A stretch of 41,095 nt of DNA. It comes from an uncultured Verrucomicrobiales bacterium (GTDB lineage: Bacteria > Verrucomicrobiota > Verrucomicrobiia > Limisphaerales > Palsa-1400). The DNA lies in the NCBI GenBank assembly GCA_903927905.1, contig CAIYOY010000020.1, forward strand, positions 1 to 41,095. The letters are read 5' to 3'. Positions 7,012 through 41,095 of this stretch are shown here, one piece after another. How positions within the stretch are numbered: position 1 is the first letter of the stretch; each line of letters starts with the position of its first letter. Below the pieces are notes generated by a model, which was not told the origin of the DNA, made no database searches, and worked only from the letters and a program-made list of their open reading frames with translations. The position numbers were made by a program, and so were the translations under genes.

Positions 7012-7114
7012 GTTTACCCTGAAAAATTACACCGGACACCAACTATTGGCAATGTTGTGGAACGAACGGGGTGCGATTGTCCCCAGTCGCAACGAGGTTC
7101 GCACGCATGAAGGC

Positions 7115-9109: not shown

Positions 9110-9233
9110 GCTCTTGTTTCGACAACTTAACCCAATCCGGAAAGTTTTAAACCTCAAATATTACAGCGACTGAGACAAAAATCATCGGCCTGGACTTGAT
9201 TGCCCGCTCTTTTGCAGCCATAGATGAAGGGTC

Positions 9234-10912: not shown

Positions 10913-11181
10913 TTCTCAACCCGGAGGGTTGCCAGAAGGTAGCCGGGGGTTGAGGAGCGCCGCGCGACGATACCCCCGGAACGGGTTGGAATTGGTTTTG
11001 CACCCCGGAGGGGTGCCAGAATTCTTTCGACAGAAACAACTCCAACTCTGCGCGAACCAATCACTTGCTCTGGAAATCTGCCACCCCTCCGGGGTGGAGT
11101 CTCTTTTTACTCATTATACCGGAGGTCTTCGCCAAGCCTTCGACCTCCGGCTACCTTCTGGCAACCCTCCGGGTTGAAAAA
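10913..11181. repeat. Nested inverted-repeat element, MITE-like. 34-bp terminal inverted repeats (10913-10946 and 11148-11181, 33/34 identical) enclose a second inner inverted pair (11001-11024 and 11078-11101) and local hairpins.
   Basis: Read directly from the sequence. ttctcaacccggagggttgccagaaggtagccgg versus reverse complement ttttcaacccggagggttgccagaaggtagccgg. Inner caccccggaggggtgccag versus caccccggaggggtggcag. Extra hairpins ccggggg...cccccgg (10944-10978) and ccggaggtc...gacctccgg (11119-11149). Confidence 0.6.
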
Positions 11182-19762: not shown

Positions 19763-19769
19763 TCCCATT

Positions 19770-20074
19770 GATTATGCCAAGAAAAAGCGTCTCGCCAACC
19801 ATTTCCACTTGTGGGGAGCCGCAAAAGCATGGATTTGGAGCATTTTATCAATTTATGCCCATAAAATGGCAATTTTTATCTAACACCTATGGTATGGTTG
19901 GTGCTATAAGAGACAGTAACTTTACTGCAAAAAAATAAGAAAATGTTTTAAAAGAACAATTTAACACCCAAGAGTTACTTGGTTGTATATATAAGTTGTT
20001 CATTATGATATATTTATATTATTAAAGCAGCCTTCGCTTTGTTGCTTGGGCGCACTCATTTTCACCCATACCAA
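19770..20074 (+). promoter_or_regulatory. AT-rich (~35-40% GC) upstream/leader region of the giant gene; probable promoter region
   Basis: Sharp GC drop relative to the flanking genes, with runs such as tatatataagttgttcattatgatatatttatattattaaag immediately 5' of the giant ORF. Confidence 0.3.
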
Positions 20075-20923
20075 ATGCCCAAAATTCATAAATATTTAAA
20101 AATAGTGTCAAAACTCGCTTTTTGTTGCCTGTTTCTCATGGCTGCGAAGGTAGATGCGCAAACTTCCTGGAAAGGCACCGTTAGCACCGCTTGGGCCAAC
20201 ACCACCAATTGGACGGCGGGGATTCCGACGGCGACGCTGGATGTGATCATTGGGGACGCCAATTTTACCGGCACCAACCAGCCGTCCATCACGGCCACGG
20301 CGGTGGCCAAATCATTGACGATTGGAACTGGGACAACGAATTGTGTGTTGTCCATGTCCAAGGGATTGACGGTTTCCGGGAATGTCACGATTGGAACGAA
20401 CGGCACGATTCTGCACAGCGGCACCACTTCTTTGACGATCAGCACCACGGGCAATTGGAGCAACTCGGGCACCTACACCAACAGCGGCACGGGCGCGGTG
20501 ATTTTTTCCGGCACGGCCCAAGCTGTTTCCGGCACGGCAGCTTTCAAGAATTTGACGGTCAACAGCACGTGCACTTTGACCTTGAACACGAACATCAGCG
20601 TGTCCACGACCTTTACTTGCACCGGCACACTGAATCCGAATGAATCGCCGACTTATCAAGTCACCGGCGCAGGCAATCTGGTCATGGCCGCGACGACGGT
20701 CTTGCTGGTCAAAGCGAGCACGTTTGCGGGCAATTACGCCTTGACCGGCACCAACGCGCTCAACACCAAATACACCGTCAACTACGCAGCGACGACGGTG
20801 AGCCAGACGATCACGTCCAACCTGGTGTATGGCACGTTGATCGCCAGCGGGGGCACGACCAAGACGCTGCAAGGCAACCTGATTTTCACCAACGCCTCTG
20901 GTGCTGGCAATATCACCGTGTAA
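20075..20923 (+). CDS. N-terminal fragment (signal peptide plus first beta-helix-type repeats) of the giant secreted repeat protein. Ends at a TAA created by a 1-nt frameshift relative to the main ORF.
   Basis: Signal peptide MPKIHKYLKIVSKLAFCCLFLMAAKVDA. It is followed by the same W..G..S..W.N.TNWT / NNLT-type repeats found in the 20901-40955 ORF. Removing one nt at ~20919 gives ...GAGNITVNGVLDLQTFTA..., which matches the internal repeat consensus ...AGNATMNGDLNISAGTLDLGSFTA... Confidence 0.6.
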   Translation: MPKIHKYLKIVSKLAFCCLFLMAAKVDAQTSWKGTVSTAWANTTNWTAGIPTATLDVIIGDANFTGTNQPSITATAVAKSLTIGTGTTNCVLSMSKGLTVSGNVTIGTNGTILHSGTTSLTISTTGNWSNSGTYTNSGTGAVIFSGTAQAVSGTAAFKNLTVNSTCTLTLNTNISVSTTFTCTGTLNPNESPTYQVTGAGNLVMAATTVLLVKASTFAGNYALTGTNALNTKYTVNYAATTVSQTITSNLVYGTLIASGGTTKTLQGNLIFTNASGAGNITV

Positions 20924-20925
20924 TG
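20895..20925 (+). other. Frameshift site (1-nt insertion relative to the repeat consensus; sequence atcaccgtgTaatggtgtg) joining ORFs 20075-20923 and 20901-40955
   Basis: Frame A reads ...GNITV*. Frame B reads ...CNGVLDLQTF. Deleting one nt after gtg gives ITVNGVLDL, continuous with the downstream repeat consensus. Confidence 0.6.
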
Positions 20926-23900
20926 GTGTGCTGGATCTGCAGACTTTCACGGCCACGCGGCCCACTGGCGGGACGGCGGGCGGGACGGTGTCGGTGTTGG
21001 CCGGGGCGACGCTGCGGATCGGCGGGACCAACAGCGAGCCGACTAATTTTAAAACCTACACCTACAATGCGGCCAGCACAGTGGAATATTACGGGGACAA
21101 TCAGTCGGTTTCCAACGCCACTTATGGCAATCTGATTTTCAGCAGCAGCACGGTGTCGGTCAAGACCATGCCCGCTGCGGCGATAACGGTCGCGGGCAAT
21201 TTCACCAGCCAGGTGGGCGTGGGGACGGGGGTGTCGTTTGTGGCGGGGGCGGCCATCACCGTGACGGGGAGTGTGTCCATCGGGGCCGGGACGACCTTTG
21301 ACGGCGGTTCATTTGCGCATTCAGTCACCGGCAATTGGACGAATAACGGGACGTTCACGGGCAATGCCAGCACGGTTTCACTCAAAGGCGCGAGTGCGAC
21401 GATCACCGGCACTGGAACCAATAATTTTGTCAACCTGACGATTGCGACGGGGGCCAATGTCACCGTGGCCACTAACACAAGCTTGACGCTGTCGGGAACA
21501 TTGACGACGACGACGACCGGAACTTTTACCCATACGGCGGGCGGGACGGGGACGGTGACGATGAGCGGCACAGCCAAGGCCATCACGGGCACGGGCATGG
21601 TTTTTAATAATCTGAATCTCCCCGGCACGATCACCACGGCCAATGGCTGGACGGTGGCCGGGAATTTGACCGTGTCCGGTTCGTTGACCGCGAGCGCCGG
21701 AACGATCATCTTGAGCGGGACCGGCGCAACGTTCACCGGCGGTGGCGTGACATCTTTCAAGAATTTGACCGTCAGCGGAACGGTCACGGCCACCAACAGC
21801 TTTACCATCGCCGGAGCAGCTCTCAACATCAGCGGCGCTCTCACGGCCACGGCGGGCACGGCCACCTTTACGGGAACTTCGACCAATTCCGGCACGGCGA
21901 ATCTGTTCAATGTGACCATCAATGGCACCAAGTTGCTGATGAGCGCGAATTCCACGCTGGGCATAGCGGGAACGGAGACCTTGACCGCAGGCACGCTGGA
22001 CACGGCCACGGCCACGCCGAATACAGTCAATTATAATTCGACCGGCGCACAAACGGTGCTGGCGGGCGCTTATTATCATTTGACCGTGTCCAACGGCGGA
22101 ACCAAGACGGCAGGCGGGGCGGTGACGAACAACGGGGATTTCACGATCGGGACGGGCACCACCTATAATGCCAGTTCGTTCACCAATCAATTGAGCGGCA
22201 ACTGGATCAATAACGGGAGTTACAGCGCCGGGACAGGCACGGTGCAGTTGCTCGGCAGCGCGGATGTGGCCATCACCGGCGCGACCACCTTCAATATCCT
22301 GACCGAAAACAAAGCCACCGCCAACAACGTCGTCACGCTGAACAACAACGTAAGCGTGGGGACGTTGAACATGACGCTCGGCCAGATGCAGACCGGCCCG
22401 AATACGCTGACCATCACCTCCACCAGGACGGGTGGCGGAACCATCCTGGGAACCATCACGCGGGCTCATGCCTTTTCTACGGCGACGGCTTATGCCTTTG
22501 AGGGGACGAACAGCACCGTCACTTTCACCACGATCAGCGGTTCGGTTTCCTCGGTGACCATGGCGGTGGGCGTGGGGACGGTGGCGGACTTTCCGTTTGG
22601 CGGGGCGATCAACCGGCAATACACCAACAGCCTGACGGCCAGCGGCGCTTATGTGGCGACGCTGCGGCTGCACTACAATGATTCGGAGTTGAACGGGAAT
22701 GTGGAAACCAACATGCAATTCTGGCGCAACAGCAGCTCCTGGGCTCAATCCGGCAAAACCAGCACCAATAGCACCGACAACTGGATCGAACAAACCAATT
22801 TGACCGACCTCACCGGGCGCTGGACGATGTCGGACGATGCCAATGTCGTGCAATGGAACGGCTCCGTCAGTTCCGCCTGGGAAAATGCCACCAACTGGAC
22901 GGCCATCCAAGGGGTGCCGAGCCGTCCGCCCACTTCGGCCGAGGCGGTGCAAATCGGCACCTCGAATTTTGTCAATCAACCGACGATCAATTCCGCCGCC
23001 TCGGTCAAGAGCATCCAGTTTGGCAGCGCACAGGCGGCGACGCTGACGGTCAATTCCGGTTCCTTGACCACCGCCGGCAACATCAGCGGCGTCTGGACGA
23101 ACACCGTGACGCATGCCATCAATATCGGAGCCACCACCCTGACGGTGGGGGGCAATCTGGCTTTGAGCGATGGGACCACGGGCGACGCGATCAACTTGAA
23201 CGCCAGTTCAGGAACAGTCACCGTCACCGGTTCGGTGACAGAATCGGGCGGAGCCAACCTGGCTTTCACCGGCGCGGGCGCCTTGAATGTGGCCGGTGAT
23301 TTTGTCTATGGCAGCGGGACGTTCACCCCGGGCAGCAGCACGGTGACCTATAATGGGAGCGGCTCGCAGATTGTGGCCGGAGGCATCACCTACAATAATC
23401 TTTCCCTCAACAAAGCGTCGGGCGCGGCGACGCTGGGGAGCACGGCCACGGTTAATGGCAATTTGAACATGGCGACGGGCGGCAGCCTGCTGCTGAATGG
23501 CGCACTGACGGTGGCGAGCAACGTGGTGGTGGGGACGGGAACAACCTTGAACTGCGGCAGCGTGACCCTGTCGGTCGGCGGCAACTGGACGAACAGCGGA
23601 ACGTTCACCGCCGGAACCAGCACGGCGGTTTTGAATGGCACCGGGGCGCAATCCGTTCCGGGGGTCACCTTTAATAACCTGACCATCAACAAAACCTCAG
23701 GCACGGCGACGCTGGCGGGCAATGCCACGATGAATGGTGATCTGAACATCAGCGCCGGGACACTGGATCTGGGCAGCTTCACCGCGAATCGCGGCGCGGC
23801 GGGCGGCACCTTGACGCTGGGCGCGAACACGACCCTGAATGTGGCCGCCTCATTCCCGGCCAATTATTCGACGCACAGCCTGGCGGCGAACAGCCTTGTG

Positions 23901-26900
23901 TTTTATAATGGGGCGGCGGCGCAAACCGTTTCGGCGGAAGCTTACGGCAATTTGTCCCTGGCCAACGGCGGGGCCAGCGCCAAGACGCTGGCGGGAACAG
24001 CCAGCATCGCCGGCGATTTTCTGATCAACAGCGGGGCGACGTTCGACGCCAGCACCTTTGCCCTGACCGCTCAAGGCAACTGGACCAATAACGGGACTTT
24101 CACCCCAACTACCAGCTCGGTCACCCTGGCGGGATCGTCGAAAACAGTCGGCGGCATCAACACCTTTAACAACCTGAGCGTCACCGGCAGTTATACCGCC
24201 ACCACTAACATCACAGTGAATGGGACGATGAATAATTCTGGCACCTGGAGCGCGGGCGCGGCCACCAATACGTTCGCCGGAGATTTTTCCAATTCCGGCA
24301 CCCTGACCAGCAGCGGCACGGTGATCTTCAGCGGGACTGCGGCGCAAAATCTGACGTTCAGTTCCGGCTTCACCAGCACCGGCGCGGTGAATTTTAACGG
24401 CACGACCGCGCCGGTCCTGCAAAACGTCAATGTCAACAATACCGGTGGTCTCGCGCCGAACACGGGTTGGACCATTGGCGGAACTTTTGTCGTGGCCAGC
24501 GGAGTGACGTTCACCGGGGGCGTGAATAGTTATGCGTTTAACGGTTCCTTCACCAATAACGGAACTTTCACCAGCGCCGGGACGGTCACTTTCAATCCCG
24601 CCGCCGCCGTGACCTGCGCCTTGCAGGGCACCGCCTTCACCAGCACCGGCCTGGTGATCTTCGGCGGCAGCGGAGCGATCACCCTTTCCGGTGGCGGGCC
24701 GACGTTTGCCCTGGTGACCATCACGAACAACAACGCGGCCGGGATCACGCCTTCGGCCAACTGGACGACCACCGATGATCTGACCATCGCGGCTGGCGCC
24801 ATCTTTAATGCCGGCACCGGATTGACTCATACCGTCGGCGGAGACTGGGTGAACAACGGCACCTTTAATGCCGGCACTTCCACCATTTCCTTCAACAGCG
24901 CGACCGCCATCGGTGGCAGCGCCACCACCACGTTCAACCATTTGACCATCGCCAGCGGCGGGGCGGTCACCAATACCGTCAATTTCAATATTTCCGGAAA
25001 CTTCACCAACAACGGCACGTTCAACACTTTTAACATCGCCATCACCTTCAACGGCAGTTCGTCCTCGGTCATCACGGGCAGCACCACGCCGACGAGTTTC
25101 GATGACGTGCTCGTCGCCAAAAGCGCGGCCATTGTTACTTTGGGCCTCAATCTTTCCAACACCGGTGACCTGCATATTTCCGGCGGAACGGTGGATTGCA
25201 CCAACTTCACCATCACCACCACCGGAACATGCGCCCTCATCGTGGATGCGGGCGCCACGCTGAAAATTGGCGGCGGCAACACCCTGCCCACCTACACCAC
25301 TTACAGCTTCGATCCGGCGGGGACGGTGGAATATTCCGGCAGCAGCAGCCAGGCCATCGCCGCGCAAAGTTACGGCAATCTGACCAGCAGTTCGACCGGG
25401 GCGCGGGTGTTGCCATCAAGTGGAACGGTCGGCGTGGCCGGAACGTTCACGCCCGGCGCGAACAGTTACACGATCACCGGCAGCACGGTGAATTTCAACG
25501 GTGCCGGATCGCAAACCATTCCGGCTTTCAATTACAACAATTTGACCAGCAGCTCGAGCGGGGCGCGCACCCTGGCTTCGAGCGGGACGATTGGCGTGGC
25601 CAGCGTCTTCACGCCCGGCGCGAACAGCTACACCGTCACGGGCAGCACGGTAAGTTTCAACGGCACGACCCAATCCATCCCCATCTTTACCTATAATAAT
25701 CTGACCGCCAACGACAGCGGCACCGCCACCCTGGCCGGCAACGTCACCGTGGGTGGCGCTCTCTCGATCGCTTCCGGCACTTTAGCCGATGGCGGTTTCG
25801 TGGCTGCGGTCAACGGCAACGTGTCGAATGCCGCCACTTATTCCGGCGCGGGTAAAATTTCTCTGACCGGCGGTTCCGCCAGCCACACGCTCTCGGGCAG
25901 CGGAACTTACAATAATCTGGAATTAAACGATGCCAACGGAGCGGCCTTGAGCCTGACCAATCTGACTGTCAACGGTACGCTGACCCTGACCACCGGAACC
26001 ATCACGACCACCACCAACAAAGTCATCATCCCGACCGCTGGCTCGGTCAGCCGGACCAACGGTTATGTCATCGGCAATTTGCAGAAGGCCGTCGCATCGG
26101 GCGCGGGCGTGGCCCGGACTTTTGAAGTGGGCACGACCAACGGCTACAATCCCGTCAGCGTGACCTTCAGCAACGTGACCGTGGCGGGCAATCTGACGGC
26201 CGCGGCCACTTTCGGCGATCATCCTTCGATCGGTTCGGCCACGATCAATCCGACCAACTCGGCGAATGTCTATTGGACGTTGAGCCAGGACGCGCCGCTG
26301 GCCTTCAACTCGTTCAACGCCGTTTTCAATTTCAACAATCCGGGTGATCTCGATGCCGGCGGCAATCCGGCGGTGTTCAAGGTGGGTAATTTTGTCTCCT
26401 CCGCCTGGAATTATCCGGTGCTCGGCAACCGCACCACCACCAACACGGCGGCCGTGGCGATGGCCAGCCTGGGCGATTTTCAATTGGGCCAAAACATCAT
26501 CACCACGCTGACGGTGACGGTGAACAATACGAACCGGATTTACGGGGCGGCCAATCCGGCGTTTAGCGGGAGCTTCAGCGGATTGCAGAGCGGAGACAAC
26601 ATCACCGCGACCTACACCACCACGGCGACGACGAACAGCACGGTGGGTGGTTACAATATCACCCCGGTGTTCAGTGACCCGGGCAACAAGTTGGGCAATT
26701 ACGCCGTGACGACCAACCTCGGCACTCTGACCATCACGCCCGCCGCTTTGACCGTGACCATCAATAGCACCAACCGTGGCTACGGCGCGACCAATCCGGG
26801 GTTCAGCGGGACGATCACTGGTTTGCTGAACAACGACAACATCACCGCGACCTACACCACGACGGCGACGACCAATAGTGCGGTGGGTGGTTACAGCATC

Positions 26901-32900: not shown

Positions 32901-35900
32901 CAGCAACCGGTTGTTTTGGTGCAAGATCAATTTGGCAATACCGTGACCAATGCCAACACCAACTTTGTCACACTTTCTCGCTTCCCATTTGCCGCCAACT
33001 CAGCGTTGCAAGGCGACACCAATGCCACCGCCGTTGCCGGGGTGGTTGATTTCACCGGCCAGGGCCTTTTCTTCAGCACCAACGGCACCTGCCAGTTGAG
33101 CGCCGACAGCGCCGGTCTCGTGTCTGCACTCTCCAGTAATATCACCACCTATGCGGCGGCGGGCGTCGCTCTCGTCATCCAAACGCAACCGTCGGCCACC
33201 GCAGCGGCGGGCGTCGCTTTTGCCCAGCAACCGGTGATTGCCGTGGTGGATTCATTTGGCAACGTCACCACCACCAATACCACCACCGTGGTGACGGTCT
33301 CGCGCAACACCGCCAGCGGCACGACCAATTTGCAAGGCACCACCAACATCACCGTGGTCAACGGCATCGCCACCTTCACCGACCTGAACTATCAATTACC
33401 CGAAACGATCCAAATTGATTTCACCGCCACTTCGCTCACCACCACCACTTCGACCAGCATCGCGGTTTCGCCCGGCGCGGCCAGCCGTCTCGTCTTTATG
33501 CAGCAACCCGCCTTGGAAACCAATGGCGCGGTCTTCACGACTCAACCGGTGGTTAAAACGTTGGATGCCTTTGGCAATCTCACCACCAACGTCGCCAGTT
33601 CCGTTCCGGTCACCATTTCGTTGGCCAGCGGTTCGGGAACTCTTTCCGGCACCACCACGCTCGACATCGGTTCCACCGCCGGTTCCGGCGTTGTTTCTTT
33701 CACCGGTTTGAAAATCACCAACACCAACGTGACCGATGCCACCGAAAGCCTCGCGGTCAGCGCTTCGGGTCTGACCGGCGCGACCTCCACGGTGTTCACC
33801 ATCGTCGCCACCAATCGCGCCCCGGTGTTTGCCGGTTGGAGCGCCCTGGACGTCGAACGCATCCGCTCATTCGGCGCGCCGGCCTTGCAAGGAAATTTGC
33901 CGTTTGCCAACTTGATCGTCGGCAGCGACGGACGGTTGTACGGCGCGGCCCAACTGGGCGGGATCAATGGGGATGGCACCCTCTTCTCTTTCCAACCGGA
34001 TGGCACCGGTTTCCAAGTGCTCCATTCTTTTGTGGAGAGCGATGGCGAGAATCCTTACGGCGCGGTCTGCGAAGGCAACGATGGCGTTCTCTATGGCACG
34101 ACCTACAACGGCGGCGCCAACGATTCCGGCACCATTTTCAAAATGAACAAAGATGGCTCCGGGTTCGCCGTGCTTTACAGCTTTGGCGACGGTTCGGACG
34201 GCGGTAATCCGCAGGCCGCGCTCATCCAGGGCGCGGATGGAGTTCTCTATGGCACCACGTCGCTCGGCGGCATCAGCGACATGGGCACGCTCTTTAAGAT
34301 CAATACCGATGGCAGCCACTACGCCGTGCTGCACACTTTCAACGCCACGCATGGTGAAGGCCGTTATCCCAAGGCTGCGTTGTTCCAGGCCGCTGACGGC
34401 TTGCTCTATGGCACCACCGAACGCGGCGGCAATAACAATCTGGGCGCGGTTTTCAAAATGAGCCCCAGCGGCAGCGGTTATACTGTCCTCCATCATTTCA
34501 CCGGCGCGAGCGGCAAGTTCCCGGACGCGCCTCTGATCCAGGGGACCAATGGCTTGCTCTATGGCACCACCTACTTTGGCGGCAGCAGTGACGTGGGCGC
34601 GGTCTTCAGCCTGACCACCAATGGGGTCGAATCGGTCGTCTATAATTTTGTGCCGGTCAGCGGAGAAAATAATCCGGCGGCCGGTCTGGTCTTTGGCCAG
34701 GATGGCGCACTTTACGGCACCACCTATTATGGCGGCGATAACGCGCACGGTCTGGTCTTCCGCGTCACCACCAACGGCAGCTTCAGTCAACTTTACAGCT
34801 TCACCGGCACCAGCGGCGATGGCCAGAATCCCAACGCCTCGCTCGCCCGCGCGGCCGATGGCACGCTCTTTGGCACCACCTTGTATGGCGGCAGTTCCGG
34901 TCTTGGCACGATTTTCACCATTGATCCGAGTCTGTCTTATCATGCCCTTCTCAGTTTACAGTCCAGCGACTCCACCCAGTCCCAATCGCCGGACGGCGCG
35001 TTGGTTGAAGGCCCGGACGGCACCTTGTATGGCAGCACCTTTTACGGCGGCAGCGAAAATGCCGGCGTGCTTTACAAGATGAGCAAAGACGGCGCTGCAT
35101 ATACCGTCCTGCACGATTTCAAACCCTCCACCGGTGACGGTCGCAATCCTTATTACGCTCTGAAATTTGGTTTGGATGGACTGCTCTATGGGACGACGGA
35201 CCGCGGGGGCACCAACGATTCCGGGTTGCTGTTTAAGATCAGCACCAACGGCAGTTCCTATGTGAAGTTGCATGACTTCGGCGCTTCGGGCGATGGCGTG
35301 ACTCTTTACTCCACGCCCATCCAGTCCGCCTCCGGCAAATTATTTGGCGTCACGGATTCCGGCGGGGTCAACGGTTCAGGCACGCTTTACGCCATTAATC
35401 CCGACGGCACCGGTTACATCATTCTGCACAGTTTCGGCGGTGCCGGTGATGGCGCGAATTCCGATGGCCGCCTTCTGCTGGCCGGCGACGGCCTGATTTA
35501 CGGCACCACTCTTTTTGGCGGGGCCAATAGCGAAGGGACGGTCTTTACCATCGCGACCAATGGCAGCAGCTATCAAGTGCTTTACAGTTTTGGCAACGGC
35601 CCGACCGATGGCCAGCAACCCTTCGCCGGCCTGATCGAAGGACTGGACGGCTCCCTCTACGGCGCGGGCACCTTCGGCGGCACCGATGGCGCGGGGACTT
35701 TGTTCAAGATCAATAAAGACGGCTCCAGCTACACCACCCTGCACAACTTCAGTCTCTCGTCCGGTGATGGCGCGCAACCTTACGCCGATCTGACTTTCGG
35801 CACGGATGGCCTGATCTACGGCACGACTTATTACGGCGGCGCTTTCGGGTTCGGCACCATTTTCCGATCCTCCGCCAACGGCGTTTACAGTTTGCTTTAC

Positions 35901-38900
35901 AGCTTCGGCGCGGGCGCGAACGACGGCGAATTTCCTTTCGTGCAACTGACCCAGGCGAGCGATGGCAATTATTACGGCGTGACCGAAAGCGGCGGCGACC
36001 TGGGCCTCGGCACCGCCTTCCGCCTGCGCTCCTTTACCAATGATCTGACCATCAACGAACTCAGCACACTTTCCATGACCATCAATGCGACCGACGCCGA
36101 TGGTCCGGGCGCCAATTTGACCTTTGCCCTCCTTTCTGCCCCGGTGGGCATGAGCATTGATCCCACTTCGGGTATCATCACTTGGACGCCCTCTGAAGCC
36201 CAGGGCCCAAGCACCAACATCTTTAACGTCGTGGTCACCGATAATGATTTCACGCCTTCCTTGAGCGTGACCAACAGCTATACCAACATCGTCAATGAAG
36301 TGAACGCCGCTCCCCGGTTGATTGTTCCGGCCAATCAAACGGTCTCCGAGGCGGTCACCATGACCGTCACCAATCTTGCGATTGACAGCGATCTCCCGAC
36401 CAACACCCTGACCTTCGCCCTGATCTCCGGGCCTTCGGGTCTGACCCTGGATTCGGCCAGCGGCGTCATCACCTGGACGCCGTCCTTGAGTCAGGCGCCC
36501 AGCACCAACACTGTGGTCGTGTCTTTGACCGATTACAACGCCGCCGCCCTGACCAACAACATTCTCAGCGTCACCAACAGCTTCACCATCACCGTCGGCC
36601 TGGTGAATCACGCGCCCAGCTTCACCAAAGGTTCCAATGTCGCCGTGGATCAGAAGTCCGGTTCCTACAGCCAAACCGGGTGGGCCACCGCCATCAGCCC
36701 CGGCCCGGCCAATGAATCGAGTCAGACGGTTAGTTTTATTGTCACTAATAACAATGCCGGTCTCTTTACCATTCAACCCGCTGTCGCCAGCAACGGCACC
36801 CTGGCCTTCACCCCCAATGCCACCCAGACCGGCACCGCCACTGTCACGGTTTACGCCCAGGACAACGGCGGCACGGCCAACGGCGGCACCAATGCCAGCG
36901 CGGCGCAAACCTTCACGATCGTGGTGGGCCAGGCTTCCTTGTCGGTGGCGGCCGGTGGCACGGCGATCTCCGCCGATACGGCTGGTGTGACTTGGACCCC
37001 CCTTTCCGGCCCGGTCTATCAGGAAGGCGGCAGTGGCAATGTTGGCGCAGGCGCGATCACCCTCAATGCGCCTACTGGATTTGCGTTTGACACGACCTCG
37101 CCCGTGCCTACGGTGATCATGCATCGCACCGCTGGTTCCGGTGCCTCCAGCCTTAATATTAATGGAGCGGCTGATGGCACTGCCTTGACGCTTAGTTCCG
37201 TTTCGTCATCCCAACTTCAATTGACCATCACCCAACCTAGCGCCAGCGGCGTGGTTTGCTCGCTCACCTGGCAAAATGTCCGCGTGCGCCCCACCGTCGG
37301 CACTCCGCTCGCCTCCGGCAACATCACCAGTTCCGGCACGGCGGCGATTTATAAAATCACCAATGGCGTCAGCAACTTCGGTTCGCTCAAAGAAATATCC
37401 GGCATAGCGGCGCAGGTCGGCATTTCGACCCAACCTTCCGGCACGGCGACTGCGGCCGTACCCTTTGCGCAACAACCGGTGGTCACGATTCAAGACCAGT
37501 TCGGCAACGTCCTCAACACCGCCAATGGCCGGGCGGATAACAGTTCCTCCGTCACTGCGGGCATCCAAACTGGCTCCAGTTCGTTGCAAGGCACGACCAC
37601 TGTTTCTGTCAGCAACGGGGTGGCGACGTTCAGCAATCTTTCCTATAATATTGCTCAGACCATCACCCTTTCTTTCCATAGCGCTTCGCTGACACCGGCT
37701 GTTTCTTCGGCCATTAATATCATGGCTGGGAGCGCTTATCAGATCGGTTTTGCTCAACAACCCGTCAACACCACGGCGGGCGCGACTAACCCCATTTCTG
37801 TCCAAGTGCGCGATTTGTATGGAAATAGCGTAACAAGTGCCGGTGTTTCCATAACTTTATCGTTACAGTCAGGCGCTGGGCCTTTGGGCGGAACACTCAC
37901 CCAGTTGACCGATGCCAGCGGTCTGGCCACCTTTACCAACGTCACCCTCAAAGTTGTCGGCACCAAACAATTGCTCGCCACCAACTCCTCGCTCGGTTCA
38001 GTTTTGAGCAGTTCGTTTGTGGTTTCTGCGGCTCCGGCTGTTCGCTTGGTTTTTGTCCAACAACCCGGCACCGAAACTGCCGGAGTCCTTTTCCAATCTC
38101 ATCCCAGTGTGCAAACGTTGGACGCTTACGGCAACGTTTCCACTTCCGGCCTGCCTTCCAGTATTAATGTCAGCCTGTTCGTTGTCGGCACCGGCGTGTT
38201 GTCCGGGACCACCAATGTGGATATCGGCACCGGCGCGGGCAAAGGTCTGGCCACCTTCACCAACCTGACCATCAATCTCGGCGGCGCCAAACAACTCGGG
38301 GCCAGCGCTTCCGGTTTGACCGGCGCGGCCAGTTCATCCTTCACTGTCAACACCAGTCTCTCCATCCTGCAACCGCACACAGATTACTCCGTTGGCCGCG
38401 GTCCGACCGGCATGTATCTCGGCAATCTTCGCGGCAAGAGCACCTGGCGCGACATGGCCGTGGCCAACTATCTCGACGGCACCATTACTGTTCGCCTTTG
38501 CAACGACGACGGCACCTTTGCCTCTGCTGCAACTTATGCCGTCGGCCCGAACCCGATGGGCGTCTGGAGCGGTAATTTCTATCACACCACCTGCGAAGAC
38601 ATCGTCGTGGCCAACTCCGGCACCAATACCATCACGCTGCTCCTCAATCTTGGCCACGGCACCTTCTGGAATCCGCGCAGCTTCCGCGTCGGTAGCACGC
38701 CCAATCCCGGTCCGGTTGCCCTCATCGGCGCTTATCTCCGCAGCAGCACGCCCGATCTCGTCGTGGCCAATCAAAACGAAAACACCGTCAGCGTCCTGCT
38801 CAACACCGGCGGCGTTTTCGGCGCGCCAGTCAATTATCCAGTTGGTTCCGGCCCAAGTTCCATCGTGGTCGCTGATCTGAACGGCGATGGCATCCCCGAC

Positions 38901-40955
38901 ATTCTCACCGCCAATAAAAACGACAACACGTTGAGCATCCTGCCTGGTCGCGGCAACGGCGTCTTCGGCACGGCCATCACCATTACGCTGCCGGGCAATC
39001 CGCAGCCGGTTTATGCTTTGGTTGGCGATTTCAACAACGACAAACGTCCAGACATCGCCGTGGCCAATTACAATTCCAACTCCATCAGCATTCTCCTGTG
39101 CCAAACCAATCACACCTTCGTTCTTTCCACCAATTACCCCGTGGGCATGCAACCCTCGAGCCTGTTGGTGCGCGACATGGATCAAGACGGTTATGTGGAT
39201 ATGGTGACGGCCAATTCCGGCGACAACACTCTATCTTATCTGCGCAATCTTCGTAATGGCAGCTTCACCAATCTCGGCTCCTTCTCCGTCGGTTCCAAGC
39301 CGGTCACGGTGGTCGGCAGTAATTTCAACAATGATCAAGCCACCGACCTCGCTGTGACCTGTTACAATGATAATATCGTTTCTGTGTTGTTGAATGCCGT
39401 GCCGCTCGCTTACGCCGTGGCCGTCACCGTGCCGGAAAATGTTCCGGCCCGCGTCACCCTGGTCGGCACGCTGCAAGGGTCGGGCACCCTTTCTTACGCC
39501 GTGGTGGACCAACCGGCCCATGGCACCTTGAGCGGCACCCCGCCGGTGTTGACCTACACGCCGAATCTCAATTACCTCGGCAACGACGTCTTCCACTTTT
39601 CAACCAGCAACGGCTCGGCCGTTTCGGCCCCGGGCACTGTGACGTTGACTGTCCTGGGCATCAATCAGGCGCCCACGTTCTCCCTCGCCGCGACCAATAT
39701 CACGGTCATCCAGGACTCCGTGGCCACCAACATCACTTTCTTTGTCACCAACATTGTGGCCGGTCCGATCAACGAAGCCACTCAGACCGTGACCTTTGTG
39801 GTCACGACCACCAACAAGACCCAGTTCACCAACCAGCCGGTCATCGGCAAAACCGGCACGCTCGCCTTTAAGGTTGCGAACGCCGCGATCGGCGTGGCCA
39901 CGATCAACGTCTATGCCCAGGACAACGGCGGCACCTTGTTTGGCGGCACCAATCGTTCGCCCATCCAGACTTTTACCGTCACCATCACGCCCAATCCGAT
40001 GCGTTCCCGCAGCGGCACTTACAATGGGCTTTTCTATAATGAAACCAATATCGGCGAAGCCAGTTCCGGTTACTTTTCGGCCACCGTCACCGGTCCGGGC
40101 ACTTACAGCGGAAAAGTGCTTTGCGATGGCCGCTCCAACGTCATCGCCGGCAAATTCGATGTCACGGGTTACTTCCAGACTAATCTCGTTCGCACCGGCA
40201 AGCCGACTATCACCATGGCCATGACGTGTGATGGCAACGACCAGATCACCGGGACTTTGGCGACCACTAATTGGTCTGCCTCACTGATCGCGGATCGCCT
40301 GGTTTTTAATGCCACGACCAATCCGGCTCCGAAAGCGGGTCATTATACTTTTGTTTTGCCGGTGACCGGCGCGGCGGCCACTAACGGGGTTGGTTATGGC
40401 TTGGCCACGATTGCCACAAGCGGGACGGTGACCGCCAGCGGCACCTTGAGCGATGGCACGGCTTACAGCCAGTCCACCACCATCTCCAAGAATGGCGAAT
40501 GGCCCTTTTACCTGCCGCTATACAGTGGCGCGGGCTCGCTCATCAGTTGGGTGAACTTCACCAATCGTCCGGCTTCGAGTCTTGAGGGCGCGGCGGTCTG
40601 GATGCGCACGAATAGATTCACCAACGCGATTATTTTGACTGGTTCCAGTTATGTGAAGCCGCTGACTGGTTTTCGCGCTCTGGACGTGACCAACGGCAAC
40701 GCCATCTTCGGTGTCGGTGCTCTCATCACCAACACCATCACGCTGAAGACCAACAACACGATTACTGTCACCGGCGGTACCAATCGCCTCGCGCTCGCCA
40801 TCAACACCACTAATGGCGCGATCACCGGCACCTTCCTGAATCCGACGACCCACGTCAGTACCGCGATCAAGGCCGTCCTTCTGCAACAGACCCGCGAAGC
40901 TGCGGGTTTCACCGGCGGCACGAACACCACCAACTTCAAGATTGAACCGCAATAA
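20901..40955 (+). CDS. Giant (6,684-codon ORF; ~6,950 aa with the N-terminal fragment) secreted multi-repeat adhesin-like protein. Beta-helix-like N-x-T-rich repeats, 13 MBG-like domains, cadherin/He_PIG-like and Ig-like modules, two GloVer-repeat blocks, an FG-GAP/VCBS-like block and a unique C-terminal domain.
   Basis: A single uninterrupted frame of 20 kb with strong protein-level periodicity (described in the findings). The first ATG of this frame is at 20901, but the real N-terminus is the upstream frameshifted ORF. Confidence 0.85.
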   Translation: MLAISPCNGVLDLQTFTATRPTGGTAGGTVSVLAGATLRIGGTNSEPTNFKTYTYNAASTVEYYGDNQSVSNATYGNLIFSSSTVSVKTMPAAAITVAGNFTSQVGVGTGVSFVAGAAITVTGSVSIGAGTTFDGGSFAHSVTGNWTNNGTFTGNASTVSLKGASATITGTGTNNFVNLTIATGANVTVATNTSLTLSGTLTTTTTGTFTHTAGGTGTVTMSGTAKAITGTGMVFNNLNLPGTITTANGWTVAGNLTVSGSLTASAGTIILSGTGATFTGGGVTSFKNLTVSGTVTATNSFTIAGAALNISGALTATAGTATFTGTSTNSGTANLFNVTINGTKLLMSANSTLGIAGTETLTAGTLDTATATPNTVNYNSTGAQTVLAGAYYHLTVSNGGTKTAGGAVTNNGDFTIGTGTTYNASSFTNQLSGNWINNGSYSAGTGTVQLLGSADVAITGATTFNILTENKATANNVVTLNNNVSVGTLNMTLGQMQTGPNTLTITSTRTGGGTILGTITRAHAFSTATAYAFEGTNSTVTFTTISGSVSSVTMAVGVGTVADFPFGGAINRQYTNSLTASGAYVATLRLHYNDSELNGNVETNMQFWRNSSSWAQSGKTSTNSTDNWIEQTNLTDLTGRWTMSDDANVVQWNGSVSSAWENATNWTAIQGVPSRPPTSAEAVQIGTSNFVNQPTINSAASVKSIQFGSAQAATLTVNSGSLTTAGNISGVWTNTVTHAINIGATTLTVGGNLALSDGTTGDAINLNASSGTVTVTGSVTESGGANLAFTGAGALNVAGDFVYGSGTFTPGSSTVTYNGSGSQIVAGGITYNNLSLNKASGAATLGSTATVNGNLNMATGGSLLLNGALTVASNVVVGTGTTLNCGSVTLSVGGNWTNSGTFTAGTSTAVLNGTGAQSVPGVTFNNLTINKTSGTATLAGNATMNGDLNISAGTLDLGSFTANRGAAGGTLTLGANTTLNVAASFPANYSTHSLAANSLVFYNGAAAQTVSAEAYGNLSLANGGASAKTLAGTASIAGDFLINSGATFDASTFALTAQGNWTNNGTFTPTTSSVTLAGSSKTVGGINTFNNLSVTGSYTATTNITVNGTMNNSGTWSAGAATNTFAGDFSNSGTLTSSGTVIFSGTAAQNLTFSSGFTSTGAVNFNGTTAPVLQNVNVNNTGGLAPNTGWTIGGTFVVASGVTFTGGVNSYAFNGSFTNNGTFTSAGTVTFNPAAAVTCALQGTAFTSTGLVIFGGSGAITLSGGGPTFALVTITNNNAAGITPSANWTTTDDLTIAAGAIFNAGTGLTHTVGGDWVNNGTFNAGTSTISFNSATAIGGSATTTFNHLTIASGGAVTNTVNFNISGNFTNNGTFNTFNIAITFNGSSSSVITGSTTPTSFDDVLVAKSAAIVTLGLNLSNTGDLHISGGTVDCTNFTITTTGTCALIVDAGATLKIGGGNTLPTYTTYSFDPAGTVEYSGSSSQAIAAQSYGNLTSSSTGARVLPSSGTVGVAGTFTPGANSYTITGSTVNFNGAGSQTIPAFNYNNLTSSSSGARTLASSGTIGVASVFTPGANSYTVTGSTVSFNGTTQSIPIFTYNNLTANDSGTATLAGNVTVGGALSIASGTLADGGFVAAVNGNVSNAATYSGAGKISLTGGSASHTLSGSGTYNNLELNDANGAALSLTNLTVNGTLTLTTGTITTTTNKVIIPTAGSVSRTNGYVIGNLQKAVASGAGVARTFEVGTTNGYNPVSVTFSNVTVAGNLTAAATFGDHPSIGSATINPTNSANVYWTLSQDAPLAFNSFNAVFNFNNPGDLDAGGNPAVFKVGNFVSSAWNYPVLGNRTTTNTAAVAMASLGDFQLGQNIITTLTVTVNNTNRIYGAANPAFSGSFSGLQSGDNITATYTTTATTNSTVGGYNITPVFSDPGNKLGNYAVTTNLGTLTITPAALTVTINSTNRGYGATNPGFSGTITGLLNNDNITATYTTTATTNSAVGGYSITPVWSDPGSKLGNYAVTTNLGTLTITKVILTGTTDNKSRAYGQTNPVFTVTYSGFVNGENSTIVTGTLSSSTAATTNSPVGNYAVTVFGQTAPNYTMNYVAGTLTVTSSALTVTANGASRGYGATNPAFSGTITGLVNNDNITATYTTTATTNSATGSYNISPVFSDPGSKLGNYTVTTNLGTLTITNAPLTVTVNNTIRGYGATNPVFTGTITGLQNNDNITATYATTATTNSAVGGYGITVTLSDPGSKLGNYTVTTNLGTLTITNVALTVTVNNTNRGYGAANPTFTGTITGLQNNDNITATYATTAATNSAAGGYGITVALNDPGSKLGNYTVTTNLGTLTITNVALTVTVNNSSRGYGATNPVFTGTITGLQNNDNITATYATAATTNSAVGGYNITPGLSDPGSKLANYTVTTNLGTLTITNAILTGTADNKSRAYGATNPVFTATYTGFVNGETSAIITGTLNGSSTATTNSSVGNYPVTVSGQSAPNYTINYVSGNLTITNVALTVTVNNSSRGYGAANPTFSGTITGLQNNDSITATYTTTATTNSAVGGYSIAPVLSDPGSKLGNYTVITNLGTLTITNAILTGTADNKSRSYGATNPVFTATYTGFVNGETSAIVTGTLTGSTTAATNSVLGTYPITVSGQSAPNYTINYVAGTLTVTGATLTVTVNNSSRGYGATNPIFSGTIIGLQNNDNITAAYTTAATTNSAVGSYSITPVLSDPGSQLSNYIVTTNLGTLTITNVSLTVTVNSASRGYGATNPVFTGTITGLQNNDTITATYTTTATTNSAVGTYNIAPVLSDPGSKLGNYTVTTNLGALTITNVSLTVTVNSASRGYGATNPVFSGTITGLQNNDNITAAYTTTATTNSPNGNYNITPVFNDPGSKLGDYTVTTNLGTLTITNVAPFLTLPTNQIMDELTTLSVNAVATDLDPSQTFTFVLLAAPTGMTIDPSSGLISWTPDETQGPSTNTVTVAVTDSGTPALSVTNSFTIVVREVNWAPAPINLQLLKSFGTTGTDGQTAEGTPMVGADGLLYATTFEGGIYGGGTIFKINTNGTGYTIIYNFGATGSDGLSPYCALVQGGDGTLYGTTYFGGSANKGTVFKIKPDGTGYTKLHDFGLGSDGANAYAELYIGQDGALYGTTLYGGPFASGVVFKLNTDGSGYTRLHDFGSVANDGSLTYAGLVQGPAGFFYGVTDSGGTNGVGTVFKLNATGSSYQILYSFSTTGGDGQFADVTLTLGNDGVLYSTTYGGGVNGDANSGGTVFKINRDGTGYAKLHDFGGPGEGQLINAGLVKGDNGVLYGGAYVAGAYGDLVSGGTLFKINTDGTGYRLLYSFHTTGNDPQLLNATFVRDSSGAFYGTSEIGGSAGDGALFRFVDLDDQVLNSVSTLSVTAPASDADIPTNTLTYALISGPGGLSMNSSSGLITWTPTHAQDGTTNTVLWQVTDNGSPALGATNNFNVIIQLVNQAPGFNLGGAALTNLEDAGAQTVLNWATNISSGPASESWQTVSFLVTNNNTNLFSTQPAISPTGTLTYTSATNANGTATVTVYAQDNGGTNYGGTNTSASQTFTITVTPVNDPPTLDAISNVSINEDAGLQTISLTGITAGPTNEVQNLTITASSSNPALIPTPGVSYISPNTTGALTFTPTIYTIGSSVITVVVSDNGGTANGGVNAVTNTFTVTVNAVNHVPSFTGGGNVFSAVTNVAQTFPNWATNISPGLPANESGQMVNFLVSINYVVDNDFTPHASSYLFSTLPAIDAGGNLTFTPTGNAGLANISVRIHDDGGTSNGGVDTSAAQTFNLGVGSTGFTPATGGEAISVDDFATGHWTFLSGPTYYEGSSGIISAGTIVLIPPPGFEFDTNTIYNGTNSPAQVVITDTVSPTVNSTNINGATNGQAFPLSMTSTSATFTITSASINGALDSIVAQNFRIRPTTTNLVSGYIYFTGTSSTNLIASGPTGTDFGDLSTVPGAPYQLAFQTQPSATATAGIAFDQQPVVLVQDQFGNTVTNANTNFVTLSRFPFAANSALQGDTNATAVAGVVDFTGQGLFFSTNGTCQLSADSAGLVSALSSNITTYAAAGVALVIQTQPSATAAAGVAFAQQPVIAVVDSFGNVTTTNTTTVVTVSRNTASGTTNLQGTTNITVVNGIATFTDLNYQLPETIQIDFTATSLTTTTSTSIAVSPGAASRLVFMQQPALETNGAVFTTQPVVKTLDAFGNLTTNVASSVPVTISLASGSGTLSGTTTLDIGSTAGSGVVSFTGLKITNTNVTDATESLAVSASGLTGATSTVFTIVATNRAPVFAGWSALDVERIRSFGAPALQGNLPFANLIVGSDGRLYGAAQLGGINGDGTLFSFQPDGTGFQVLHSFVESDGENPYGAVCEGNDGVLYGTTYNGGANDSGTIFKMNKDGSGFAVLYSFGDGSDGGNPQAALIQGADGVLYGTTSLGGISDMGTLFKINTDGSHYAVLHTFNATHGEGRYPKAALFQAADGLLYGTTERGGNNNLGAVFKMSPSGSGYTVLHHFTGASGKFPDAPLIQGTNGLLYGTTYFGGSSDVGAVFSLTTNGVESVVYNFVPVSGENNPAAGLVFGQDGALYGTTYYGGDNAHGLVFRVTTNGSFSQLYSFTGTSGDGQNPNASLARAADGTLFGTTLYGGSSGLGTIFTIDPSLSYHALLSLQSSDSTQSQSPDGALVEGPDGTLYGSTFYGGSENAGVLYKMSKDGAAYTVLHDFKPSTGDGRNPYYALKFGLDGLLYGTTDRGGTNDSGLLFKISTNGSSYVKLHDFGASGDGVTLYSTPIQSASGKLFGVTDSGGVNGSGTLYAINPDGTGYIILHSFGGAGDGANSDGRLLLAGDGLIYGTTLFGGANSEGTVFTIATNGSSYQVLYSFGNGPTDGQQPFAGLIEGLDGSLYGAGTFGGTDGAGTLFKINKDGSSYTTLHNFSLSSGDGAQPYADLTFGTDGLIYGTTYYGGAFGFGTIFRSSANGVYSLLYSFGAGANDGEFPFVQLTQASDGNYYGVTESGGDLGLGTAFRLRSFTNDLTINELSTLSMTINATDADGPGANLTFALLSAPVGMSIDPTSGIITWTPSEAQGPSTNIFNVVVTDNDFTPSLSVTNSYTNIVNEVNAAPRLIVPANQTVSEAVTMTVTNLAIDSDLPTNTLTFALISGPSGLTLDSASGVITWTPSLSQAPSTNTVVVSLTDYNAAALTNNILSVTNSFTITVGLVNHAPSFTKGSNVAVDQKSGSYSQTGWATAISPGPANESSQTVSFIVTNNNAGLFTIQPAVASNGTLAFTPNATQTGTATVTVYAQDNGGTANGGTNASAAQTFTIVVGQASLSVAAGGTAISADTAGVTWTPLSGPVYQEGGSGNVGAGAITLNAPTGFAFDTTSPVPTVIMHRTAGSGASSLNINGAADGTALTLSSVSSSQLQLTITQPSASGVVCSLTWQNVRVRPTVGTPLASGNITSSGTAAIYKITNGVSNFGSLKEISGIAAQVGISTQPSGTATAAVPFAQQPVVTIQDQFGNVLNTANGRADNSSSVTAGIQTGSSSLQGTTTVSVSNGVATFSNLSYNIAQTITLSFHSASLTPAVSSAINIMAGSAYQIGFAQQPVNTTAGATNPISVQVRDLYGNSVTSAGVSITLSLQSGAGPLGGTLTQLTDASGLATFTNVTLKVVGTKQLLATNSSLGSVLSSSFVVSAAPAVRLVFVQQPGTETAGVLFQSHPSVQTLDAYGNVSTSGLPSSINVSLFVVGTGVLSGTTNVDIGTGAGKGLATFTNLTINLGGAKQLGASASGLTGAASSSFTVNTSLSILQPHTDYSVGRGPTGMYLGNLRGKSTWRDMAVANYLDGTITVRLCNDDGTFASAATYAVGPNPMGVWSGNFYHTTCEDIVVANSGTNTITLLLNLGHGTFWNPRSFRVGSTPNPGPVALIGAYLRSSTPDLVVANQNENTVSVLLNTGGVFGAPVNYPVGSGPSSIVVADLNGDGIPDILTANKNDNTLSILPGRGNGVFGTAITITLPGNPQPVYALVGDFNNDKRPDIAVANYNSNSISILLCQTNHTFVLSTNYPVGMQPSSLLVRDMDQDGYVDMVTANSGDNTLSYLRNLRNGSFTNLGSFSVGSKPVTVVGSNFNNDQATDLAVTCYNDNIVSVLLNAVPLAYAVAVTVPENVPARVTLVGTLQGSGTLSYAVVDQPAHGTLSGTPPVLTYTPNLNYLGNDVFHFSTSNGSAVSAPGTVTLTVLGINQAPTFSLAATNITVIQDSVATNITFFVTNIVAGPINEATQTVTFVVTTTNKTQFTNQPVIGKTGTLAFKVANAAIGVATINVYAQDNGGTLFGGTNRSPIQTFTVTITPNPMRSRSGTYNGLFYNETNIGEASSGYFSATVTGPGTYSGKVLCDGRSNVIAGKFDVTGYFQTNLVRTGKPTITMAMTCDGNDQITGTLATTNWSASLIADRLVFNATTNPAPKAGHYTFVLPVTGAAATNGVGYGLATIATSGTVTASGTLSDGTAYSQSTTISKNGEWPFYLPLYSGAGSLISWVNFTNRPASSLEGAAVWMRTNRFTNAIILTGSSYVKPLTGFRALDVTNGNAIFGVGALITNTITLKTNNTITVTGGTNRLALAINTTNGAITGTFLNPTTHVSTAIKAVLLQQTREAAGFTGGTNTTNFKIEPQ
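26500..29630 (+). repeat. Tandem array of 13 MBG-like (Y-G / YDG-type) ~80-aa domains, ~240-bp DNA units with high nucleotide identity
   Basis: Unit consensus LTVTVNN(T/S)(N/S)RGYGATNPVF(T/S)GTITGLQNNDNITATY(A/T)TTATTNSAVGGY.I.P.LSDPGSKLGNYTVTTNLGTLTITN, with alternating variant units (T(A/T)DNKSR(A/S)YG...TGFVNGE(T/N)S...). Adjacent units share identical runs of more than 60 nt, for example around 27525 and 27765. Confidence 0.8.
29930..31060 (+). repeat. GloVer-type (Gloeo_Verruco) repeat block 1, ~8 repeats of ~47 aa; likely beta-propeller
   Basis: Repeats of the form DG.NPYA.L..G.DG.LYGTT..GG..G.GT(V/I)FK(I/L)N.DG(T/S)GYT.LH.F. Examples: ADGLLYATTFEGGIYGGGTIFKINTNGTGYTIIYNF and GDGTLYGTTYFGGSANKGTVFKIKPDGTGYTKLHDFG. 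Confidence 0.7.
33820..36050 (+). repeat. GloVer-type repeat block 2, ~16 repeats; second propeller module(s)
   Basis: Same consensus as block 1: ...GNDGVLYGTTYNGGANDSGTIFKMNKDGSGFAVLYSFG..., GADGVLYGTTSLGGISDMGTLFKINTDGSHYAVLHTF, and so on, through ...GLGTAFRLRSFTNDL. Confidence 0.7.
38370..39400 (+). repeat. FG-GAP / VCBS-like repeat block (~7 repeats), integrin-alpha-type beta-propeller
   Basis: Repeats with hydrophobic-VAN-x-x-(D/N)NT(I/L)S(V/I)LLN and DxNGDGxxD motifs. Examples: VADLNGDGIPDILTANKNDNTLSILPGRGNGVFG and VGDFNNDKRPDIAVANYNSNSISILL. Confidence 0.55.
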
Positions 40956-41095
40956 CAGGCAGGCAGTAGGGGGTGATTGAAGTTAAATTTCAGCATTGAT
41001 CTCGCACAAGAGAAAGCGCCAGAGGACTGGGCGCAGTCCAAGACGCTTCGCGTTTTATGGGGCGCATTATTTTGGCGCCAGCTTTTGGACTGCGC

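Follow-up and report, generated by a model that had tools for sequence, protein, structure and literature searches.

The second half of contig CAIYOY010000020.1 (assembly GCA_903927905.1), from an uncultured Verrucomicrobiales bacterium, is filled by one giant gene, and this gene, its protein and the C-terminal domain of that protein are described here. The window analysed is the complete contig of 41,095 nucleotides (nt) (NCBI and ENA). With moderate confidence, the region is read as a single gene for a Sec-exported cell-surface protein of ~6,959 amino acids (aa), fibrillar and adhesin-like, whose C-terminal tail would act as an attachment or sorting module and whose gene has probably been inactivated recently. 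A giant multi-domain adhesin-like protein with a Sec signal is well supported by the sequence, in agreement with a first-pass annotation of this DNA that had proposed a secreted protein of ~7,000 aa. We infer a surface location, an orientation in which the head points outward and the tail lies proximally, and an adhesive role. The family to which the tail belongs comprises more than 11,500 sequence clusters and is undescribed in Pfam and NCBIfam.

Gene and overall organization of the protein

One open reading frame (ORF) of 6,684 codons, 20901..40955 (+), fills the second half of the window. A random frame of this length and base composition would be expected to contain ~220 stop codons (estimate), and none is present; the ORF is therefore not accidental, and the frame has been kept open by selection, or was until very recently. 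A second ORF, 20039/20075..20923 (+), lies upstream in a different frame, starts with a signal peptide and ends at TAA 20921-20923. When T20921 is dropped, '...NASGAGNITV' is fused to 'NGVLDLQTFTATR...' ('NGVLDLQTF...'), giving a conceptual protein of 6,959 aa with no internal stops. Pfam and NCBIfam scans with hidden Markov models (HMMs) were run on ten consecutive pieces of this protein, and the module order proposed in the first-pass annotation was borne out almost module for module. The signal peptide is located as follows:

20075..20158 (+): Sec-type signal peptide, aa 1-28, read from the translation as MPKIHKYLKIVSKLAFCCLFLMAAKVDA followed, after the putative cleavage site, by QTSW

Residues 2-28 form a helix in the AlphaFold2 (AF2) model, and the junction '...A/QTSWKGT' (slash, end of the signal peptide) is common to the homologues.

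Behind the signal peptide, the protein would consist of a double beta-helix head (~1,850 aa), 13 MBG_2 domains forming a stalk, a tandemly duplicated super-module (GloVer propeller, He_PIG/tandem-95 sandwiches, a ~165-aa unit, then a trio of Ig-like domains), an FG-GAP propeller, two beta-sandwiches and, finally, a ~320-aa domain of three 8-stranded beta-barrels. It would cross the inner membrane via Sec, and the beta-helix head and the propellers would point outward as binding surfaces. The triple-barrel domain would be the envelope-proximal attachment or sorting module, at the place where relatives carry the C-terminal domain (CTD) of the type IX secretion system (T9SS).

Proteins of at least 10,000 aa have been reported as frequent in Verrucomicrobiota (preprint 10.1101/2023.11.21.568195), and thus the giant size is not unusual by itself; the description of the protein as of a rarely characterised kind is apt. 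With the giant fibrillar adhesins and giant proteins of the Planctomycetes–Verrucomicrobia–Chlamydiae (PVC) bacteria (Omnitrophota, Verrucomicrobiota; 10.1101/2023.11.21.568195) it shares the size class, arrays of Ig-like or beta-sandwich stalk domains, binding modules and a probable extracellular location. It differs from them in its domain set and C-terminal domain, and in having no RTX domain or type I secretion features, no C39 peptidase and no SecA-like domains. An S-layer protein, suggested earlier as a possible identity, was rejected, as no SLH or S-layer model matched.

C-terminal domain and its family

The tail is located as follows:

39993..40955 (+): conserved C-terminal domain, aa 6640-6959, and stop codon; three consecutive 8-stranded meander beta-barrels (AF2)

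These last 320 aa gave no Pfam or NCBIfam match and had been listed as a domain without recognisable motif, but they are not an orphan and belong to a very large conserved C-terminal family. A first search with the tail retrieved 13 relatives with 27-39% identity (E 8e-55 for P0001, at 96-100% coverage), the complete ones all ending at the same point; the tail itself ends at the last residue of the protein. An exhaustive profile search of 1.84 billion cluster representatives retrieved 11,533 proteins at E ≤ 1e-3, of which 5,149 were found at E ≤ 1e-30. The domain ends ≤10 residues from the C-terminus in 147 of the 150 best members, the typical ending being '...vLQkxNxGxGyFLGTNQSGrVxLxP', and the tail sequence is strongly conserved over its full length. 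The domains upstream of it are variable and include InlB B-repeat, Big_7, cyclophilin, LRR_5, Calx-beta, fn3, Ig and cadherin-like types, and signal-peptide-like N-termini are common among the members. No Pfam match (10 representative members) and no NCBIfam match (7 members) was obtained for the domain region. Only a few members carry names; these come from metagenome-assembled genomes (MAGs) labelled Limisphaerales or 'Verrucomicrobia bacterium', with one from a Dongiaceae MAG.

Structure prediction, which had been suggested for this stretch, gave a model with a predicted local distance difference test score (pLDDT) of 82 and a predicted template modelling score (pTM) of 0.80, in which 24 strands of 5-11 residues are arranged as three 8-stranded meander units. 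In a Foldseek search with the tail model TbpB was the top match (E 2e-6), and the best fold matches of each barrel were TbpB, fHbp and hemophilin, which are cargo of the Slam or type XI secretion system (T11SS), that is, ligand-binding surface proteins, and avidins. A PDB sequence search with the C-terminal profile returned nothing useful. Profile-profile comparison among the three barrels gave no convincing homology (best E 7e-4 over 40 columns), and an origin of the barrels by internal triplication is not supported.

N-terminal head

The head consists of two modules:

20159..22847 (+): N1 module, aa 29-924, right-handed beta-helix followed by a beta-sandwich from ~aa 790 to 920; spans the frameshift
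22848..26495 (+): N2 module, aa 925-2140, second beta-strand-repeat module, homologous to N1 and on that ground predicted to be a beta-helix

N1 and N2 are 29.5% identical over 809 aa (E 2e-30). N2 opens with the motif W-N-G-S-x-S-x-W-x(4)-NW, as N1 does, and ends in a terminal domain of no recognised type (~aa 2000-2140). In the AF2 model of the N-terminal head (pLDDT 94.3, 51 aligned sequences), the signal helix is followed by a long solenoid, whose strands have 3-4 residues, and a beta-sandwich stands at the end, so that the beta-helix-like character assigned earlier to the N-terminal region is upheld for N1 as a right-handed beta-helix. Its richness in N-x-T/S is only modest, with 84 sequons in aa 29-2140 against 63 expected from composition.

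Residues 1-924 have 164 homologues, the best with 56% identity at 99% coverage, and homologues pass from N1 on into N2. Those with names come from Verrucomicrobia MAGs and from many members of the Bacteroidota (Chitinophaga, Cyclobacteriaceae, Ferruginibacter), and the T9SS CTD PF18962 is present in several of these; the related-locus search with N1 as query yielded only Bacteroidota and Calditrichota loci. The 120 homologues listed of the 164 are all ≤1,607 aa, many being annotated as 'partial', and neither the 261-aa fragment of the window nor the giant ORF is among those listed. Long relatives therefore seem to be truncated or missing in that protein collection, and the absence of full-length orthologues from it says little.

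The closest comparison is with Bacteroidota 'beta strand repeat-containing' T9SS cargo (Ferruginibacter sp. MAG protein L002, Chitinophaga polysaccharea HGH93_01835, and P0044/P0045 with PF18962). These proteins share with the window protein the signal peptide, the start 'QTSWKGTxSTxWxTxxNWT' and the N1 and N2 head, with 50-56% identity over N1. The Ferruginibacter protein (L002:3404-11920, 2,838 aa) is colinear with aa 22-1846, a stretch of ~1,850 aa, with 44.6% identity over 1,896 columns. The Bacteroidota cargo differs in belonging to another phylum, in ending with the T9SS Por_Secre_tail CTD, which also forms the C-terminus of the Ferruginibacter protein, and in having no MBG stalk, GloVer or FG-GAP propellers or triple-barrel tail. 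Because the colinear match is to a protein that ends in Por_Secre_tail, the head (~1,850 aa) is, on sequence comparison, a conserved cassette shared across phyla and joined to different tails. Identities of 45-56% between the Verrucomicrobiota gene and Bacteroidota T9SS cargo suggest that this cassette was transferred between phyla, a clear cassette exchange with 'choice of anchor'. The architecture, described earlier as unusual and mixed, consists in part of a conserved head cassette shared with this cargo.

The passengers of autotransporters and two-partner secretion systems (Vag8, pertactin, EtpA, UpaB, Hap, TibA, Ag43) resemble the head alone, with an identity of only 10-15%. Unlike these passengers, the window protein has neither a 12-stranded C-terminal translocator barrel nor a two-partner secretion domain, and its beta-helix lies N-terminal to a multi-domain tail of 5,000 aa.

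Possible attachment, sorting or ligand-binding role of the tail

None of the established C-terminal signals was detected. No match to PF18962 or TIGR04183 (T9SS CTD) was obtained on aa 6630-6959, the protein end '...TNTTNFKIEPQ' has no hydrophobic segment and no Pfam or NCBIfam match of the PEP-CTERM or LPXTG type, and the type Va translocator barrel PF03797 gave no Pfam match. The T9SS, PEP-CTERM, LPXTG and autotransporter anchors were thus rejected, the first three of them in line with the first-pass annotation.

An attachment or sorting role of the tail is tentatively favoured, because it is strictly C-terminal and conserved, because its passengers vary and because a T9SS CTD stands in the same place in relatives of the head. 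The 'choice-of-anchor' naming of GloVer proteins in NCBIfam was also counted in favour of an anchor: TIGR03803 is the 'choice-of-anchor tandem repeat GloVer-containing protein' family, the window protein carries 21 GloVer repeats far above its cut-off, and the family name implies interchangeable C-terminal anchors, but the putative anchor of the window protein is none of the catalogued ones (PEP-CTERM, LPXTG, T9SS CTD).

A partial parallel is found in the T11SS, described in Proteobacteria, whose cargo is reported to be steered to an outer-membrane secretor by an 8-stranded barrel that lies at the C-terminus, after a variable effector (preprint 10.1101/2024.09.26.615229). Slam/T11SS cargo (TbpB, LbpB, fHbp, NHBA, HpuA, hemophilin) shares with the window protein a variable N-terminal part followed by a C-terminal soluble 8-stranded barrel. 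The likeness is at fold level only: the tail has three tandem barrels, has no handle domains and no lipobox, and matched neither the TbpBBD nor the Lipoprotein C family in sequence. No DUF560 secretor is found among the genes of the window, nor any other secretion-system component.

Several observations weigh against the proposed reading. A few family members (P0134-P0139, P0156, P0185) carry 2-4 full copies of the tail, ~350-650 aa apart and some of them internal; this is unusual for a signal that serves sorting alone and agrees with a module of binding or structural function. Beside three members of the tail family, and in the window, no conserved partner gene was seen. Furthermore, the frameshift leaves 96% of the protein (6,677 codons) without the signal peptide, so that a functional product may be absent here.

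The first two observations also speak for an alternative that we consider a doubtful but real possibility, namely that the tail is a ligand-binding or effector module, comparable to the handle-bearing barrels of TbpB, fHbp and hemophilin, to avidin or to lipocalin, in a protein that is released or held in some other way. The top fold matches, as ligand-binding surface proteins and avidins, point in the same direction. This alternative sits poorly with a domain at the extreme C-terminus of nearly all top members and with a T9SS CTD in the same position in the head-cassette relatives; moreover, unrelated passengers in combination with full-length conservation are typical of sorting and attachment modules, whereas the tips of adhesins usually diversify. 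An attachment or sorting module continues to be the tentatively favoured reading of the tail. Its extension, in which the triple-barrel domain (~320-340 aa) would be a new C-terminal sorting or envelope-attachment system marking thousands of secreted cargoes, the members named so far being mostly from Verrucomicrobiota (Limisphaerales and relatives), is speculative and, on present grounds, fairly unlikely.

Interruption of the reading frame

The frameshift lies inside the N1 module, after codon 282:

20918..20925 (+): frameshift site GTG-TAA-TG; stop codon TAA 20921-20923, downstream frame restarting at AAT 20922

Eight close homologues run unbroken across this junction, where the window protein is one residue shorter, and the lesion is therefore a +1 insertion or a -2 deletion. 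An identical truncated product of 261 aa (Met22 to TAA) recurs among the gene calls of four ENA assemblies, namely ERZ1426842 and ERZ1426713, ERZ18668157 with a 'scaffold' and ERZ27313604 with a 'k141' contig. DNA could be read for two of the contigs, L011 and L012, and both match the window at 100% identity along 2.3-2.4 kb that include the frameshift site. Since the same truncated product occurs in four assemblies and two contigs are identical across the site, we conclude that the interruption is present in the data and is no assembler artefact. The first-pass annotation had spoken of correcting the frameshift, which assumes an error that this recurrence does not bear out. Because no stop has yet appeared in the 20 kb of downstream frame, the gene in the sequenced population is most likely a very recently inactivated copy.

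An error of sequencing or consensus at this position, or a minor variant taken up by all assemblers, with the intact 6,959-aa protein actually being made, is improbable. Such an error would agree with a 20-kb downstream frame that carries no other lesion and with a corrected junction that aligns with the homologues and is modelled confidently by AF2 over the frameshift site, and the four assemblies may go back to read sets that are related or even identical, given the identity of L011 and L012 to the window. The site, however, is neither a homopolymer nor a simple repeat, and the truncated product is found under different ENA analysis accessions, with contig names (scaffold, k141) that suggest different assemblers.

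A split but functional gene, in which translation bypasses or exploits the interruption by a programmed +1 frameshift at GTG-TAA-T or by coupled re-initiation at GTG 20928, is very improbable. The stop codon lies precisely at the shift site, and GTG 20928, in the long frame, is located 5 nt past the stop and is the start chosen for the long gene by the gene caller in ERZ1426842. Against this, GTG-TAA-T is not slippery, as the Val tRNA should be unable to re-pair on TGT, a re-initiated product would have no signal peptide, and the eight aligned homologues are each continuous across this site; programmed frameshifting was rejected on the ground that the site is not slippery. A recent inactivation is retained as the most likely state of the gene. 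Within 20918-20930 the stop also forms part of a 'TAATG' stop/start overlap, whose ATG belongs to the third frame and is a dead end. The reproducible frameshift is a caution, and silent 'correction' of giant ORFs in MAGs is to be avoided.

Stalk, propeller and beta-sandwich modules

The modules between the head and the tail are as follows:

26496..29645 (+): 13 tandem MBG_2 (YGX-type) domains of 80-81 aa each (PF18676, 13 stretches, E 7e-204)
29652..29903 (+): He_PIG domain, aa 3193-3276 (PF05345, E 2e-8)
29946..31070 (+): seven GloVer repeats, aa 3291-3665 (TIGR03803, 7 stretches, E 4e-79, 260 bits, cut-off 44)
31062..32345 (+): He_PIG/Big_9 domain and three tandem-95/cadherin-like beta-sandwiches with VN(D/Q/H)xP linkers, aa 3663-4090 (HMM matches)
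32337..33821 (+): ~165-aa unit, aa 4088-4255, and three ~105-aa Ig-like repeats, aa 4254-4582 (repeat alignment)
33846..36065 (+): 14 GloVer repeats, aa 4591-5330 (TIGR03803, 14 stretches, E 1e-203, 659 bits, cut-off 44)
36051..36926 (+): two He_PIG domains and one tandem-95-like unit, aa 5326-5617 (He_PIG 2 stretches, E 4.5e-12; paralogue of aa 3663-3856)
36927..38360 (+): second ~160-aa unit and three Ig-like repeats, aa 5618-6095 (paralogue of aa 4095-4576)
38373..39395 (+): FG-GAP repeat region, probable beta-propeller, aa 6100-6440 (FG-GAP_3, 4 stretches, E 1e-30; FG-GAP, E 1e-14)
39393..39992 (+): two Big_9/tandem-95-like beta-sandwiches, aa 6440-6639 (Big_9 E 8e-9, tandem-95 E 1.5e-7)

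The 13 MBG domains reported earlier were recovered in full, at 661 bits against a Pfam cut-off of 25, and the DNA of the array has a period of 240/483 nt with 68-81% matches. Its units belong to two subtypes in the order AABAAAABABAAA, which points to the duplication of multi-unit blocks. Ten units are of the 'GYGATNPxF(T/S)GTITGLQNND' type and three of the 'RAYGxTNPVFTxTYxGFVNGE' type.

Both GloVer blocks, the second twice as long as the first, were likewise found as described. The first resembles designed 'Cake' beta-propellers by sequence (E 1e-7) and is probably one 7-bladed propeller, with blade count and fold predicted from the repeats, and the second would probably form two propellers. 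Nothing relevant on GloVer repeats was found in the literature. One He_PIG domain precedes the first GloVer block, one follows it and two follow the second, with scores of 35, 32 and 46.7 bits in three segments (cut-off 24); the single domain ahead of the first block and the pair behind the second had been noted before. The FG-GAP propeller repeats also stand, both FG-GAP_3 (106 bits, 26.9) and FG-GAP (54 bits, 22.1) exceeding their Pfam gathering scores.

The block at 31.06 kb had been named cadherin-like. Its sandwiches are present, but it starts with a further He_PIG/Big_9 domain (Big_9 E 6e-9, 37 bits, above the Pfam cut-off of 23.6; He_PIG E 2e-7), and the matches to tandem-95 (NF012211, 3 stretches, E 7e-15, 54.8 against a cut-off of 90) and Cadherin_5 (E 2e-3, 18 against 26.5) are below the cut-offs. 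The two sandwiches of aa 6440-6639 are 42% identical to aa 3687-3858.

The Ig-like stretches, described earlier as invasin/Big-type, were found as 3 + 3 repeats of ~105 aa, but the family assignment is supported below threshold in one of the six units, the middle one of the second triple (Big_1 E 3e-5, 24.5 bits against a gathering score of 34.9; Invasin_D3 E 2e-4, 22.3 bits against 33). The other five units gave no Big_1 or Invasin_D3 match in Pfam, and a PDB sequence search with the Ig repeat profile returned nothing useful; an Ig-like fold of the six units is plausible. Each triple is additionally preceded by an unassigned ~165-aa unit. These paralogous units (32337-32840 and 36927-37412) share the motif '...GxIxLxxPxGFxFD...' and gave no Pfam, NCBIfam or PDB sequence match, and the first Ig-like triple also gave no Pfam or PDB sequence match.

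Internal repeats and assembly integrity

The internal segmental duplication proposed earlier was confirmed by self-comparison of the protein. The duplicated segments are:

aa 4095-4576 and aa 5625-6091: 41% identity over 490 aa, E 1e-70
aa 3663-3856 and aa 5420-5617: 53% identity over 199 aa
aa 3198-3283 and aa 5326-5413: 60% identity
GloVer block 1 and GloVer block 2: 40-44% identity

The high repetitiveness at protein level and the end of the contig 140 nt past the stop might suggest that several shorter genes with repeats were wrongly joined into the 20-kb ORF during assembly, but such a chimera is extremely improbable. At DNA level the internal repeats are only 60-88% identical and no long exact repeats occur in the gene, and with repeats so diverged mis-assembly is unlikely. 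In addition, a single uninterrupted frame crosses the 20 kb, the order N1-N2 is kept in homologues, and a second contig of 25.5 kb, from another assembly, contains this gene too, with a call of at least 6,595 aa and identical Pfam content.

Flanking regions

The flanking genes are of housekeeping type and comprise NfeD/flotillin, MazF, cytochrome c with molybdopterin oxidoreductase, VWA, a transglutaminase-like protein, DHH-CBS phosphoesterase, a rhodanese-pseudouridine synthase fusion, GDSL, DUF3800, HSP20, Lon, a LolA-like protein and SRAP. The following were recorded:

2337-2669 (-): MazF/PemK-type toxin gene (PF02452, E 6e-14), with a short upstream gap that could seat an antitoxin
4828-9157 (-): two adjoining large genes, with a VWA domain (727 aa) and with DUF3857 and a transglutaminase-like core (680 aa)
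11114-12970 (-): 618-aa ORF joining UPF0176/rhodanese domains to an RluA-type pseudouridine synthase domain
19769-20074: strongly AT-rich intergenic region of ~300 nt, separating the divergent SRAP gene from the giant gene
41044..41074 (+): terminator-like hairpin with T-rich tail, ~90 nt past the stop, by consensus match only

The AT-rich region is presumably the promoter region; a sigma-70 consensus scan of it gave no convincing site on the + strand. Two terminator-like sites were found, compared with 0.2 expected in shuffles.

Biological implications

As a class, a giant adhesin-like gene is ordinary for PVC bacteria, and the C-terminal family is the part worth following. If the triple-barrel domain does form a sorting or attachment system, it would parallel the T9SS CTD in Bacteroidota or the single barrel of the T11SS in Proteobacteria, and the giant protein would be one of its largest cargoes. 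Such a signal would help to explain how large proteins are placed at the surface in Verrucomicrobiota, which have no T9SS and, in this case, no PEP-CTERM, and would make the surface proteomes of Verrucomicrobiota predictable from sequence.

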